DNA from: a virus
DNA: 64,000 nt
Direction: 5' to 3' (one strand)
Virus record (IMG/VR): IMGVR_UViG_3300003320_000592
Span: 1,054-65,053 of that record
The position numbers and the translations under genes are program-made. The notes under the pieces are model-generated. The model did not search any database, was not told the DNA's origin, and saw only the letters and a program-made list of their open reading frames with translations. Shown here in pieces: positions 37,458 through 48,716 of this stretch (positions within the stretch are counted from its first letter, which is position 1; every line of letters starts with the position of its first letter).

Positions 37458-37858
37458 CAGAAGCCGTAGCCGACATGGGCCCTGTGGCACGGGCCGTGTC
37501 GCGCGCCCGTGACGTGCGCCGCCCGGACGCGGACTCGATCGGCGCCGGGCAGGTCGTCGTGGTGTACGGGCCGCGGGTGCGCAAGATCTCGCACGTGGTC
37601 CGCGTCGGGCGCACGCTGATCGAGGTGGCCGGGATGTCGTTCCCGTTCGACCGAGACATGCTGCGGGCGCGGACCGGCTCCGGGACCCAGTGGCGGATCA
37701 AGACGGCCGAGCAGGACGCGTACGACCTGCGCATGGACGCGGCGCGCGCCCGGCTGCGGCGGGCCGGCGTGGCACTGTCCGCCGTCCAGCCGCCGCCCGA
37801 CGGGCACATCCTGGCATACGCAGCCCTGGCCCGCCTGCTCGCCGAAGGCGGTGGGTGA
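37454..37858 (+). CDS. Hypothetical protein
   Basis: ATGA coupling. Confidence 0.5.
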   Translation: MTEAVADMGPVARAVSRARDVRRPDADSIGAGQVVVVYGPRVRKISHVVRVGRTLIEVAGMSFPFDRDMLRARTGSGTQWRIKTAEQDAYDLRMDAARARLRRAGVALSAVQPPPDGHILAYAALARLLAEGGG

Positions 37859-37970
37859 CATGGCCAGAAGGATCCTCGCGTCCGTCGCCGTCGGACTGCT
37901 CGGAGCGGCGGTCGCGGTGCTGGTCGGGTCACTGCTGGCCGCCTGCGGACCCAACGTCTAGGAGAACACT

Positions 37971-38381
37971 GTGATCCACCGAATGACGCCTGCACGCCTG
38001 GACACGCTGAGCAGGCACCACGGGCCAGCCGCCACGGAGCTGGCCAACGAGGTCAGACGCATGTGGGACCTGTTCGAGCGGCTGTCCGCCTGCGTCGGCC
38101 GGCTCGACTTCGACAGCGCCGAGTCCGCGCTTCCGCCGGACGAGGAGTCGTGGGTCGAGTTCGTCCGCACTGTGCACGAGCGCGCCGAGAAGATCATGGA
38201 CGAGTACGACGGAGCCGACTACGCCGAGTACCAGGCCAGGCGCGCCGAGGTCATGGAACGGTACACGCCGCGGCTGAAGGAGCTGGACGTGCGCAATCCC
38301 GCATACGCGGTGCTGTGGAACGAGCGGCGTGAGGCGCTGGACGCGCTGGACGTCTCCTACCGCCGCAAGAGAGGGCACTGA
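37971..38381 (+). CDS. Hypothetical protein
   Basis: AGGAG RBS. Confidence 0.55.
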   Translation: MIHRMTPARLDTLSRHHGPAATELANEVRRMWDLFERLSACVGRLDFDSAESALPPDEESWVEFVRTVHERAEKIMDEYDGADYAEYQARRAEVMERYTPRLKELDVRNPAYAVLWNERREALDALDVSYRRKRGH

Positions 38382-38382
38382 C

Positions 38383-38658
38383 ATGCCGGTCTACAGGTTC
38401 GAGGCCGTCAGACGGCGGGTCACCAAGGTCGTCAAATGCCGGGGCTGCGACCGCAAGCTCACCAGGTCGACCACGCTGGAGCAGACGGTCAACCCGTACA
38501 ACCGCAACGCCGACGGCACCGTCAAGACGCGCAGCCAGATCGTCGAAGAGCTCGAAGACGAGGCGGCGATCTGGCACCCGAGCAACGACATCTGCTCACG
38601 GTGCAGGGATCTCCCGGTGTGGCCGATCGTCGAGGACGCAGATCCGCTGACGGCCTGA
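38383..38658 (+). CDS. Zn-finger-like hypothetical protein
   Basis: CRGC...CSRC; QTVNPYN...GTVKT. Confidence 0.55.
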   Translation: MPVYRFEAVRRRVTKVVKCRGCDRKLTRSTTLEQTVNPYNRNADGTVKTRSQIVEELEDEAAIWHPSNDICSRCRDLPVWPIVEDADPLTA

Positions 38659-38677
38659 CGGCCGCAGCCCGCGAACG

Positions 38678-38717
38678 CGCGGCGCCCGGGTTGCGTCAGG
38701 GGAGCCCGGGCGCCGCG
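38678..38717. terminator. Intergenic 13-bp hairpin
   Basis: CGCGGCGCCCGGG-14 nt-CCCGGGCGCCGCG. Confidence 0.55.
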
Positions 38718-38740
38718 TATCCACAGGAAGGAACCGCCGG

Positions 38741-39088
38741 ATGACACCGGAGCGACTGGCCGAGATCCGCGTACGCTATCCGAGCCTGACCGTCGTTGGC
38801 GAACTGCTCGACCACATCGAAGAGCTCGAACACCGTCTAGACGTGTGCCAAAAGGCGCAGAGGGCCGCCATGGGACCGGCCGCGCAGGACCTCATGCTGC
38901 TTCCGTCCGCGCACACCAGCGAGCAAGAGGCGCACGCCGCCGCACGCGTGGTCTGCGACCGGACCGGGCGCGCCGAGCTCGAAGACCGATACCTCGAACC
39001 TGCGCGACTGTCGGACACCAGCCGGCGCTTCCTGGCACAGGAGGCCCGGCCCGTGCTCGAAATGCTCGGCCTGGTCGAGCCCCGCTGA
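38741..39088 (+). CDS. Hypothetical protein
   Basis: GGAAGGA RBS. Confidence 0.55.
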   Translation: MTPERLAEIRVRYPSLTVVGELLDHIEELEHRLDVCQKAQRAAMGPAAQDLMLLPSAHTSEQEAHAAARVVCDRTGRAELEDRYLEPARLSDTSRRFLAQEARPVLEMLGLVEPR

Positions 39089-39327
39089 ACGAACCCCGGA
39101 GGAACCGCGCCATGGGCGTGCTCATCATCATGGCCCTGCTGCCCGCCCTGGTGCCCACGAAGCGCCGACCCCGCTACCACGGCCTACGGGGTCGCCCGCG
39201 CTACCGCGGCGCGCACCGGGGCCGGTCGCGTCCACTGCGCATGCCTTCGCTGATCCGAGCGGCCGGCCTTTAACAGACTTCCCGGACATCCGTCCGGGTT
39301 ATGAAGATCCCTATAGGAGGGGAACAA

Positions 39328-40221
39328 GTGAAGAAGATCCACAGGATTCTGGCCCTCGGCGCCGCATTGGCGCTGCTGGCCGGTGTGGGCGCGGCCTCGG
39401 CCGCCGCACCGAGCTCGGCACCGTCCAGCTACGTCACGCAGACCAGCACCCGCGTGCTGGACACCCGCACCGCGAACACGCCGCTGGCCTCCGGGCGCAC
39501 CACGGTCATCGACACGAAGGTCCCGGCCGGGGCCACGGCCGTCACGGTCAACCTGACCATCACCGGCGTGACCGGCGGCGGATTCGTCCTGGCGTACGCC
39601 GACGGCGCGACAAGGCCGGACCCGGCCAGCTCGGTCAACTTCGGCGTCGGCCAGACCGTGGCCAACGAGACCACCGTGGCGCTGACCAACGGAAAGATCG
39701 ACGTCTACAACGGCGCCGCCAGCGGCAGCGTGCAGGTCATCGTGGACGTGCTCGGGTACTACACGGCGGCCGCGGCGGCCTACGTGCCCCCGACGACGGC
39801 CAGCGCGCACGACACCGGCGGCGAGACCGTCACCACCGGCGGGTCCTTCAGCGCCAACGCACAGGAGGTCGCCACCCTGGCCCTGGCCGCCGGATCCTAC
39901 GAGGTGTCCCTGAGCGCCAAGGCGACCCCCACGGCCGCCACCGGATCCGTCGAGGTGTTCCCGCAGTTCTTCGTCTACAACCAGGCCAAGAACCCGGCGT
40001 TCACCGGCGACGAGTTCAACGCGGGCAGCGGCGCGCTGGAGTCAGGATCCAACAGCAACATCGACTCGTACTTCAGCGGATCCGGCCTGGTCACGGTTCC
40101 GTCCGGTGGAGAGACGCTGCACGTCTACGCGTTCGGATACGACAGCGACCGCGGCTCGGGCAGCTACACGCTGGACAACCTGTCGATCACGGCCGTGCCG
40201 GTGGCGGTACCGGTCAGCTGA
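39328..40221 (+). CDS. Secreted protein with an actinobacterial surface-protein domain (RVLDTR...VNLT...SSVNF...DVLGYY)
   Basis: AGGAGG RBS; signal peptide [25 protein letters not shown]. Confidence 0.75.
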
Positions 40222-46073: not shown

Positions 46074-48716
46074 GTGCGGTTCGCTGAGCCGGACAAGAGG
46101 AATCCTGATCGCATGAGCCTGCTGACGGAATGGGCCAGGCGGCTCGACCCCGCCACGGTGGTCGAGTCCGCCACATCCCGCTGGCACCGTGCCGCCCGCC
46201 CCGAGCAGCGTCTGCCCGAGGGCGACTGGCGAGTGATCTACTTCCAGGGCGGCCGGGGTTGTATCGCGCCATGGACGCGGATTTGGCTTCCGCTGGAGGG
46301 CAGATACGAACGAGTGGATGAACTGGCCGCCGCTGGTCAATCGATTACAGTGCTCACGTTGGGTGGTCCATCCCGCACTGATGGTGCGCCATTCGCCAAG
46401 GGCGTCGCCGATTTGTACGAAGTGATTATGGAGGATGAGCGCCGGGTCACGGTGACTGGTCAGCACCGTTTTCTGACGCCGCGAGGATGGCGGCGACTCG
46501 CCGACGTGCGCGTCGGACAGCTTCTTGCCGTCGCTGCTCCCGTTCTGCCGCAGGCAGGTTCTTGTTGCCAGTCATGTTGTTCATCAGGTGTTCGGCGTTC
46601 GACGAGTACAGAACCAAGTTGCTCGGATCGTTGTCCGACGTGTCACGGTTCCTGTGGTCGACCACTTCGTTCGGTAGCAGATACCGACCGATCTGCTGCT
46701 CCATCACAAGGCGGTGTTGCCGCACGTACCCGTTCACAGCGCGTGGATGGTCGGGGTGGTGCACAAGGATGTATCCCTCTTCATCAACTGTGTATCCGCC
46801 TCGCCAGAAGTGGTTGCGGCTCGATCGCGCCTTCGCAGGGAGTCGTGGCAAGTCGAGGTTCTTCATCCGACGCCGCACCGTCTCCTCAGAAACACCGAGT
46901 AACGGCGCCATCTCTCGCGTACTCATCTGCTGACCAGCTAGTTCGCGAAGCAGATCTTCATCCACCGGAATCCGTCTGGTCTCCGTTCGACGAGCGATGG
47001 ATTCAGGACTCTTCTTCCGTCCCAGATGTGCAGCCGAGATCTTCGCTCGGTGCTCATCCGACATCCGTTGACCTTTGCGCGGCATATGCTGATTCTACAG
47101 CGTGGTCGCGGATTGTGGTGGTGCGACCAGTCGGAAGAGGGGTTTTCTACGACCTGACGGTACCTGGCGCAGAGCACTACCTGGCCGAGGGAATCTGGCA
47201 CCACAACAGCGGCAAGACCCGGGCCGGATCGTCCGGCCTCGCGGAGATCATCGAGGCGGACCACGACTTCGATCCGCCGGGGGAGTATGGAATCATCGCT
47301 CCGACCTACCGGGACGCGTGGACGGTGTGCGTCGAGGGCGAGTCCGGGATCCTCAAGGCGCTCGGCACCACGGCCGGCGAGGTCAAGAACGGGCAGTCGC
47401 GCACGGTCGAGTACGCCTACCGCAGCTACGGCGAGATCGGCCTGCGCAGCGGCCATGTGATCTACGTGGACTCGGCCGACGACGGCGCCCTGCGGGTGCA
47501 GGGCAAGAACCTGCGCGCGGTCTGGGGCGACGAGATCGGCCTGTGGAAGCGCTGGAAGCTGGCCTGGGAGGAGTCGATCCGGTACGCGGTCCGCAAGGGA
47601 CGCGCCCAGATCATCCTCACCGGGACGCCGAAGGCGTCGCGGCCCGCGCGTGCGCTGGTGCGCCGCCTGATCAAGGCGGCACGCGGGGACGACGAGTTCG
47701 CGGACGGCCCCGTGATCCTGCGCCGGCTGCGCACCATCGACAACATCGCCAACCTGGCCGAGTCCTTCGTGCGCACGGTCGTCGGCGCGGCCAAGGGAAC
47801 CCGGCTGGAGCGCCAGGAGCTCGAAGGCGACCTGCTGGACGACGTCGCCAACTCGCTGTGGTCCCGGGAGACGATCGACAACTGCCAGTGCCCGGCCGTC
47901 GGCGCAGAAGGCGGCCCGGACTACCTGACGTCGGTGCGCATGGGCGTGGACCCGTCCGACGGCACCGAGGAGTCCGACGAGCAGGCGTACACCGTCGCCG
48001 GGCTCGGGCCGTTCCGCGACCAGATCTACGTCATCGAGTCGTGGGGCGGCCAGGAGGCTCCGGCGCCGTTCGCCCGGCGGTTCCTCAAGCGTGCTGCGGA
48101 GCTGGACGCCACGGTCACCGTGGAGAAGAACCACGGCGGCCAGTGGATGATGGACCTGATCGAGCAGATCCAGCGGGACATGCTGGCCAAGGGCGAGATC
48201 ACCAAGCGCGTTAAGGTGGAGAAGATCCACGCGGGCGAGTCCAAGCGTACCCGCGCCGAACCGGTGTCCGGTCTGTACGAGCGGGGCGTGGTGCAGCACG
48301 CGGGCGGTCCTTTTGTGGATCTTGAGGACCAGATGGCGACCTTCACCGGCGCCAAGGACGAGCGGTCTCCCGACCGGCTCGACTCGCTCGTGTGGGCCTG
48401 CCATCCGTTCCTCCAGATGACCTTCGGACCCGTGCAGCGCGCACTCGTGGCGAAGTGGAGCCGGGACGGCGGAGAGCTGGCGTCTGCGGTACCGCTGGAG
48501 CGCGGCCGCGGCGGCGACCCGATCGAGGCGCCGGATCCCGACGGCGGCCGCGTCTCGGTGCCCCGCGGGCTCCGGCAGCGGATGGCGCACGAGGCCGCCA
48601 TGGCGCAGCCGTTCGGAGATCTTGACGGATGGGGTCCGCAGGATGCGGAAGACGTACCTGAGCACGGGGCGCACGGCAACGTGCACTCGTGGTCGTCCGC
48701 CTCGTCGCCGTTCTAG
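46074..48716 (+). CDS. terL: Terminase large subunit interrupted by an intein
   Basis: QGGRG/SGKT Walker A after splicing; WGDEIG Walker B; LTGTP; GVDPS, VEKNHGG, SPDRLDSLVWA nuclease motifs. Confidence 0.92.
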   Translation: MRFAEPDKRNPDRMSLLTEWARRLDPATVVESATSRWHRAARPEQRLPEGDWRVIYFQGGRGCIAPWTRIWLPLEGRYERVDELAAAGQSITVLTLGGPSRTDGAPFAKGVADLYEVIMEDERRVTVTGQHRFLTPRGWRRLADVRVGQLLAVAAPVLPQAGSCCQSCCSSGVRRSTSTEPSCSDRCPTCHGSCGRPLRSVADTDRSAAPSQGGVAARTRSQRVDGRGGAQGCIPLHQLCIRLARSGCGSIAPSQGVVASRGSSSDAAPSPQKHRVTAPSLAYSSADQLVREADLHPPESVWSPFDERWIQDSSSVPDVQPRSSLGAHPTSVDLCAAYADSTAWSRIVVVRPVGRGVFYDLTVPGAEHYLAEGIWHHNSGKTRAGSSGLAEIIEADHDFDPPGEYGIIAPTYRDAWTVCVEGESGILKALGTTAGEVKNGQSRTVEYAYRSYGEIGLRSGHVIYVDSADDGALRVQGKNLRAVWGDEIGLWKRWKLAWEESIRYAVRKGRAQIILTGTPKASRPARALVRRLIKAARGDDEFADGPVILRRLRTIDNIANLAESFVRTVVGAAKGTRLERQELEGDLLDDVANSLWSRETIDNCQCPAVGAEGGPDYLTSVRMGVDPSDGTEESDEQAYTVAGLGPFRDQIYVIESWGGQEAPAPFARRFLKRAAELDATVTVEKNHGGQWMMDLIEQIQRDMLAKGEITKRVKVEKIHAGESKRTRAEPVSGLYERGVVQHAGGPFVDLEDQMATFTGAKDERSPDRLDSLVWACHPFLQMTFGPVQRALVAKWSRDGGELASAVPLERGRGGDPIEAPDPDGGRVSVPRGLRQRMAHEAAMAQPFGDLDGWGPQDAEDVPEHGAHGNVHSWSSASSPF
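46447..47085 (-). CDS. HNH homing endonuclease (NUMOD3 + HTH + HNH) encoded antisense inside the TerL intein
   Basis: MSDEHRAKISAAHLGRKKS (NUMOD3); MSTREMAPLLGVSEETVRRRM (HTH); FWRGG...GYI...HPDHP...GYVRQHRLVME..IGRYLLPNEVVDHRNRDTSDNDPSNL (HNH). Confidence 0.88.
   Translation of the reverse strand: MPRKGQRMSDEHRAKISAAHLGRKKSPESIARRTETRRIPVDEDLLRELAGQQMSTREMAPLLGVSEETVRRRMKNLDLPRLPAKARSSRNHFWRGGYTVDEEGYILVHHPDHPRAVNGYVRQHRLVMEQQIGRYLLPNEVVDHRNRDTSDNDPSNLVLYSSNAEHLMNNMTGNKNLPAAEREQRRQEAVRRARRRVAAILAASENGADQSP
47086..47097 (-). promoter_or_regulatory. Leaderless -10 promoter for the antisense HNH gene
   Basis: TAGAAT exactly 6 nt before ATG on the minus strand; no clear -35. Confidence 0.55.

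Follow-up and report, generated by a model that had tools for sequence, protein, structure and literature searches.

Antisense LAGLIDADG genes are known inside contiguous inteins of the Synechocystis DnaX protein and of a Chloroflexus SpoVR-like protein (Gorbalenya 1998; Gogarten 2002). In actinophage inteins, including inteins of the large terminase subunit TerL, antisense genes of both the LAGLIDADG and the VSR-like type have been described, together with an out-of-frame EndoVII-like case (Gosselin, Arsenault, Gogarten, bioRxiv 10.1101/2025.01.02.630785). The preprint proposes that inteins are invaded by free-standing endonuclease genes, and lists HNH only as an in-frame domain. Here we describe a predicted intein in the terL gene of IMG/VR virus record IMGVR_UViG_3300003320_000592 that carries an HNH endonuclease gene on its antisense strand. 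The stretch analyzed, called the window throughout, comprises 64,000 nucleotides (positions 1,054 to 65,053) of this 68.8-kb record, which is ~94% complete. The sequence patterns in the window and its relatives point, with a probability of roughly 0.8, to a two-strand selfish element in the P-loop of TerL, in which a cis-spliced intein is combined with an antisense HNH homing nuclease.

The window resembles the published antisense cases in having a contiguous intein with intact splicing blocks, an opposite-strand nuclease open reading frame (ORF) between the blocks, a host-frame insert without recognizable structure, a sporadic distribution over exteins, and a proposed origin by invasion. Unlike the antisense endonucleases reported so far (LAGLIDADG, VSR-like), the window nuclease belongs to the HNH_3 type and has NUMOD3 and helix-turn-helix (HTH) modules. 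The family also differs from the published cases in its extent, with 410 IMG/VR relatives and 88 distinct double-open loci that range in GC content from 0.35 to 0.67, in its occurrence in the Walker A motif of several nucleoside triphosphatase (NTPase) families, and in an HNH 3' end that overlaps block B in the window's clade. The initial annotation of this DNA, made from the sequence alone, had suggested that the architecture might be undescribed. That suggestion fails for antisense endonuclease inteins in general, where LAGLIDADG and VSR-like genes were already published, and only the HNH type appears to be unreported. No description of an antisense HNH intein was found in a full-text literature search (intein, antisense, and HNH) or in Kelley et al. 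2016. The window apparently represents a much larger family, with another nuclease type, of a rare known architecture.

Four other systems share parts of this arrangement. Canonical HNH inteins likewise combine a HINT splicing domain with an HNH nuclease for mobility, but their HNH domain lies inside the intein polypeptide, whereas the window encodes it as a separate protein on the other strand with its own start signals. ShiLan, which is inserted out of frame and "hidden" in DNA methylase genes of mycobacteriophages (PMC11855218), is also an HNH gene nested in a stop-free host ORF; it is on the same strand in another frame with no detectable splicing domain, whereas the window has an antisense gene in a bona fide intein. 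The window HNH matches ShiLan-type methylase loci (Thibault, Schatzie, Constella, Bipolar, and others) with 32%–44% identity by tblastn, and the two systems may use related nucleases. In fractured genes, a free-standing endonuclease gene lies between the halves of a split intein (Dassa et al. 2009, PMC2677866). The window also has a free-standing-type endonuclease gene between intein halves but, unlike fractured genes, its host ORF is continuous and this continuity is under selection, so that cis splicing is expected. The I-HmuI family of HNH homing endonucleases, from phage group I introns (1u3e), also joins an HNH_3-type core to HTH and NUMOD DNA-binding modules; unlike in I-HmuI, these modules are N-terminal in the window HNH, and the carrier is an intein rather than an intron.

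The features of the locus are as follows, with positions given in the window and model confidence given as pLDDT (predicted local distance difference test):

46074–48716, plus strand: terL precursor ORF, 880 amino acids counted from GTG 46074, with no stop throughout
46248–46259, plus strand: N-terminal half of Walker A (GGRG), directly 5' of the intein; empty alleles have an uninterrupted GGRGSGKT
46260–47207, plus strand: class-1 intein of 316 amino acids, from Cys1 through the terminal His-Asn, within Walker A (GGRG/C...HN/SGKT)
46260–46262, plus strand: Cys1 (Cys63 of the precursor), invariant in the 18-sequence alignment A2
46260–46544, plus strand: N-terminal splicing domain with blocks A and B; pLDDT 88–96, 52%–72% identity in relatives
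46455–46466, plus strand: block B TGQH (T128-x-x-H131), with T and H invariant in 18 aligned sequences
46545–47090, plus strand: host-frame read-through insert of ~182 amino acids, rich in S, R, C, G, and A; no domain match, predicted to be disordered
47091–47207, plus strand: C-terminal splicing region with blocks F and G; pLDDT 87–97 in the core blocks and 72 in the first ten-residue block
47202–47207, plus strand: terminal HN (HHN/SGKT in the window); HN and the block F Asp are invariant in alignment A2
47208–47219, plus strand: +1 Ser (at 47208) and C-terminal half of Walker A (SGKT), directly 3' of the intein
47085–46447, minus strand: HNH endonuclease gene of 212 amino acids, a complete ORF within the intein
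47017–47073, minus strand: NUMOD3, HNH residues 5–23; 19.1 bits, slightly below the cut-off of 20.4
46852–46962, minus strand: HTH, HNH residues 42–78
46600–46719, minus strand: HNH_3, E value 1e-9; 38.3 bits versus a cut-off of 24.8
47092–47097, minus strand: TAGAAT, a -10-like hexamer 6 nucleotides upstream of the HNH ATG and a candidate promoter for a leaderless transcript

The ORFs were re-read, and the coordinates that had initially been assigned to the intein and the HNH gene were all correct. The intact splicing blocks (C1, TxxH, and HN/S) claimed by the initial annotation are present in the window, with C1, the T and H of block B, and the terminal HN invariant in relatives, and the sense-frame insert, described there as nonsense, is indeed a stretch without a domain match. 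The minus-strand 212-residue NUMOD3-HTH-HNH protein and the TAGAAT hexamer upstream of its ATG were likewise recovered.

The host gene is likely to start at ATG 46113, in agreement with the N-termini of homologs P0124–P0127, which begin MSLL..W. With this start, the precursor has 867 amino acids and spliced TerL has 551, and the empty-allele homolog P0125 also has 551. The N-extein ends in YFQGGRG and is followed by Cys63, and Terminase_6N and Terminase_6C domains were identified downstream of the intein by profile searches. GC content is 0.58–0.60 across the element (46300–47200) versus 0.69–0.72 in the flanks, a dip of ~0.10 that is consistent with an element of foreign origin. A megablast search of terL against deposited phages produced no match. 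The window's own database protein (P0123) has 532 amino acids (47120–48716) and begins within the C-terminal region of the intein. Gene callers have also cut terL short at two related loci, L003 (527 amino acids) and L008 (501 amino acids).

Profile matches in the terL frame were obtained for Pfam Intein_splicing at residues 112–378 (score 36.3 versus a cut-off of 35.8), for TIGR01445 (N-terminal region) at residues 63–135, and for TIGR01443 (C-terminal region) at residues 358–379 (19.5 versus a cut-off of 15.6). The model of the splicing domain aligns with the solved NpuDnaB intein with a Z score of 21.1 and a root-mean-square deviation of 1.8 over 136 residues, and 31 intein or HINT entries have a Z score of 8 or more. 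In the same prediction, made from the 18-sequence alignment, the insert has a pLDDT of 30–38 and no secondary structure. The junction G-x-G/C...HN/[STC]GK[ST] was found in 17 of 17 inteins examined. The window insert has the residues and the HINT fold of a class-1 intein, and protein splicing would be expected, since its catalytic residues are intact and TerL is essential.

The minus-strand protein has phrog_10730, "HNH endonuclease," as its best PHROG match (E value 4e-23) and 174 database homologs with E values down to 1e-80 and identities of 49%–76%. Five residues (D143, H144, N156, N163, and H166), which include the His and Asn residues expected for catalysis in HNH_3 homing endonucleases, are invariant across 31 HNH homologs. 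Mean pLDDT of the HNH model is 81, with values of 92–97 in the nuclease core. I-HmuI is the sole nuclease among the top structural matches for this model. A whole-chain Foldseek search of the model against the PDB produced nothing at an E value of 0.001 or below, with I-HmuI at 0.18. When the HNH alignment was used as a profile against PDB sequences, the sole matches were to a tandem HTH protein (2lvs) and to a designed repeat, with no nuclease among them.

The two genes overlap in a register that pairs codon positions 1, 2, and 3 of the HNH gene with host positions 1, 3, and 2, respectively. As had been noted at the outset, this is not the codon-aligned antisense frame, which is the one easily kept open, and an NTC codon followed by A in the HNH gene would create TGA in terL. 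A total of 115 loci were collected from IMG/VR (410 relatives, of which the best 80 were kept) and from GTDB genomes. All 88 distinct loci (HNH GC content 0.35–0.67) have zero stops in the window's register, versus 2–27 stops in the other two antisense frames. Stop avoidance was quantified, as suggested in the initial annotation, by shuffling synonymous codons within each HNH gene while keeping the protein and the codon composition. Only 1% of the shuffled window genes had no host-frame stop (mean of 3.7 stops), and across the family the median probability of zero stops was 0.001, with 5.4 stops expected on average. The control set comprised 16 more distant HNH genes that are not open in this register and apparently free-standing. 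Observed and simulated stops in these genes were equivalent (14 and 14.5, 12 and 14.2, and 18 and 20.6), which indicates that the null model is sound.

Avoidance of stops is visible in both codons and amino acids. None of the 1,721 HNH sites at risk of creating a host-frame stop has a dangerous codon ending, versus 42% elsewhere. The window has 16 at-risk sites, none with a dangerous ending, and the use of GTG at its two Val-before-A sites, remarked on in the initial annotation, was confirmed (V117 and V127). Phe followed by Ile, Met, Thr, Asn, or Lys was found zero times among 262 Phe residues in embedded HNHs versus 10 times among 63 in free-standing relatives. At these dipeptides, a synonymous change cannot rescue the host frame.

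Substitution patterns were compared across 16 relatives. In the central insert (HNH residues 25–180), divergence is 0.31 at HNH position 1, 0.27 at position 2 (the host wobble position), and 0.57 at position 3, and identity over the same DNA is 54%–68% in the HNH frame and 19%–34% in the host frame. This pattern indicates that the HNH protein is under purifying selection and that the host-frame peptide is under no constraint beyond an open frame. Purifying selection on the sense-frame insert, an outcome that had been named as contrary evidence, was instead found on the HNH frame. Divergence flips to 0.11, 0.33, and 0.23 at HNH positions 1, 2, and 3 in the last 27 HNH codons, opposite block B, where the intein frame dominates selection. 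The claimed overlap of the HNH C-terminus with block B is borne out, with the last residues, 207–211, lying opposite this block. The near-invariant HNH tail, RRARQRVAAILAAS, is explained by the dominance of the intein frame there. The overlap is not due to chance, and both frames are real.

The HNH gene also appears to carry its own start signals. Of the 19 closest distinct loci, 17 have TANNNT exactly 6 nucleotides before the first HNH start codon, versus a background frequency of 0.0086 per position; its variants include TAGAAT, TACAAT, TATAAT, TAGTAT, and similar hexamers. Its invariant bases include one host-frame wobble site, where coding constraint should be weakest. In leaderless promoters of Actinobacteria, transcription begins at the start codon itself, with a -10 hexamer, TANNNT, ~6–7 nucleotides upstream of it, and the motif and spacing upstream of the HNH genes fit this layout, as a candidate leaderless promoter would. 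In many lower-GC, distant members, this place is taken by Shine-Dalgarno motifs of the GGAGG or AGGAG type.

Searches for homologs, also proposed in the initial annotation, produced both the 88 antisense-HNH loci and empty alleles. On all contigs of the closest HNH homologs, the HNH gene is antisense and directly 5' of a called, truncated terminase gene, and terL-strand ORFs of 860–1129 amino acids run through it, with the junction QGGRG/C[IV]APW. The nine closest TerL proteins (74%–88% identical) are empty, with GGRGSGKT at the site. Among the best 120 TerL homologs, 100 are empty at the site and five, including the window's entry, are truncated gene calls that start inside the C-terminal region of the intein. 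An extein tree was constructed in a quick IQ-TREE maximum-likelihood run, with support from the Shimodaira-Hasegawa-like approximate likelihood ratio test (SH-aLRT) only. It placed the window among the nine empty alleles (SH-aLRT 97–98) and implied six changes for the occupied state, at least four of which are forced by supported branches. The intein and HNH are 60%–66% identical across TerLs that are only 27%–32% identical to the window's.

The composite was also identified in other P-loop NTPase genes, including a Sno-like helicase, an SNF2 helicase, and an AAA_2 ATPase, and possibly in a protein with a weak, below-cut-off TraG-D_C match. One of these loci, L050 (3–8450, minus strand), encodes a large polyvalent protein of >2800 amino acids with LPD1 and a Sno-like helicase, and its ORF is open across the entire 8.4-kb locus. 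Its block B sequence (ITVTDEHRFLTPQ) and the point at which its HNH gene stops are those of the TerL clade, which we read as a clear case of extein switching. Three further loci, L097, L099, and L068, have giant ORFs like that of L050, with the same intein and antisense HNH in a helicase P-loop. The offset between the HNH stop and block B (+3 codons) was considered as a family-wide marker and rejected, as it is constant only in the close clade and L050.

The initial annotation had proposed that a free-standing HNH gene invaded a mini-intein in reverse, forming a composite mobile element. The composite nature of the element is upheld by stop avoidance, the substitution pattern, TANNNT, and the empty alleles. 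An invasion in this phage is not, because the same composite in the same register occurs in several host proteins and at 88 loci over a wide GC range. With the nine closest TerL alleles empty, the window is read as having acquired a ready-made composite by homing, and the fusion of HNH and intein is old.

Under the two-strand reading, TerL would be translated through the entire element on the plus strand, with the ~182 central residues forming an unstructured loop without a function of its own. The HINT domain would excise the whole insert and join GGRG to SGKT, restoring the ATPase. On the minus strand, a free-standing-type NUMOD3-HTH-HNH protein would be made from its own antisense transcript, probably leaderless and starting at the ATG. 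During co-infection, the nuclease would cut intein-free terL at or near the predicted site GGCCGGGGT/AGCGGCAAG, and the occupied allele would then serve as the repair template, so that intein and HNH gene would be copied as one. The antisense transcript, splicing, the site of cleavage, and present-day mobility are all predictions from sequence.

Several observations weigh against this mechanism. TANNNT overlaps intein coding DNA just before block F, and coding constraint could explain part of its conservation. An antisense promoter within the late operon would collide with terL transcription, and a search for sequencing runs containing the window stretch found DNA runs of one root-metagenome study only and no RNA runs. 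The match of the HNH model core to I-HmuI (Z score of 6.0, root-mean-square deviation of 3.2 over 80 residues) is modest and within the range of chance matches. The closest intein-and-HNH relatives are only ~66%–68% identical and show no sign of a very recent transfer into this lineage.

This last observation would also suit an explanation in which the HNH protein is made and selected, yet does not act, or has ceased to act, as a homing enzyme for this intein. It might instead have a packaging-associated role, aiding cleavage by the terminase, or another phage role, with mainly vertical inheritance. HNH proteins beside terminase genes are known to form part of some packaging machines (PMC3592412). 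We nevertheless regard such a role as unlikely. The same HNH accompanies the intein into helicase and AAA ATPase genes, which ties it to the intein and not to packaging, its occurrence is sporadic within near-identical TerL clades, and its NUMOD3/HTH/HNH_3 make-up is typical of homing endonucleases.

A fractured gene with a split intein, in which the halves of terL are translated separately and trans-spliced and the open frame is irrelevant, is a good deal less probable. Gene callers do predict a separate C-terminal terL fragment downstream of HNH, and endonuclease genes are known to lie between the halves of split inteins (PMC2677866). Separate halves, however, would give no reason for stop avoidance, and 88 loci keep the frame open, each with a probability of ~0.001, even at a GC content of 0.35–0.45. 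The data are also explained without a start codon and ribosome-binding site for the C-terminal half of terL. This alternative was rejected on the basis of a single continuous ORF in which stops are actively avoided. Finally, long spurious antisense ORFs are common in DNA with the GC content of the flanks, but a double open frame that is a high-GC by-product, a coincidence, or a decaying remnant is refuted by the register survey (not the high-GC-open register, and open in low-GC relatives too), the shuffle test (P = 0.01 for the window), and the 174 homologs and purifying-selection pattern of the HNH protein.

Returning to the two-strand element, one fixed and non-obvious register is found in every member, although the codon-aligned register is easier to keep open, and this would fit a single ancient fusion. 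It is conceivable, at somewhat less than even odds, that all antisense-HNH inteins descend from that fusion and spread as a unit through the Walker A motif of unrelated P-loop NTPases (TerL families, Sno-like and SNF2 helicases, and AAA ATPases) in low- to high-GC hosts, and that the antisense layout gives the nuclease early expression independent of late terL. If so, few families of obligately dual-strand-coding selfish elements would be larger. The loci also constitute a large natural data set on opposite-strand coding, in which selection acts on the protein of one frame and only on the openness of the other, dominance switches where the nuclease gene enters a splicing block, and forbidden Phe-[IMTNK] dipeptides are the amino-acid footprint. 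They support a model of intein evolution in which splicing came first and the endonuclease invaded later, and they show extein switching via common P-loop sequences. At these loci, terL is systematically cut short or misnamed by gene callers and in deposited annotations, which affects terminase-based phage classification and packaging predictions.

Carriers were also identified among cultured phages. In Pectobacterium phage Sabo (PQ008974.1; locus L116, record positions 37606–39870), a 754-residue "hypothetical protein" beside the portal gene is TerL with a P-loop intein, and the junctions are AGFG/CVHP...HIHHN/TGKS. An intact, unannotated antisense HNH ORF of 232 amino acids lies within this intein (L116:2453–3151, plus strand). 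Equivalent HNH matches were found, by tblastn alone, in phages Koroua, Amona, Taid, Pappous, Ymer, and Abuela and in Dickeya phage Setonix, where they lie under "hypothetical protein" coding sequences or in an unannotated record. No intein is mentioned in the publication that describes the Ymer genus. These cultured carriers, Pectobacterium phages of the Ymer genus, make the mechanism directly testable.

Other inteins were observed in related TerL proteins. The closest TerL homolog, P0124 (on a Logan contig of 16.7 kb), has an empty P-loop and a different intein at LEDQM/C...VHN/CTFTGAK. The middle of that intein is of low complexity, rich in S, T, R, and A, and may conceal another out-of-frame or antisense endonuclease gene. 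A second intein 3' of the P-loop intein, with PT-HINT, Hint_2, and Vint matches, was identified in L004/L089 (1587–4973, minus strand), L016 (1491–5084, minus strand), and L020 (1671–4961, minus strand), where the TerL ORFs with two inteins reach 1129, 1198, and 1097 amino acids, respectively.

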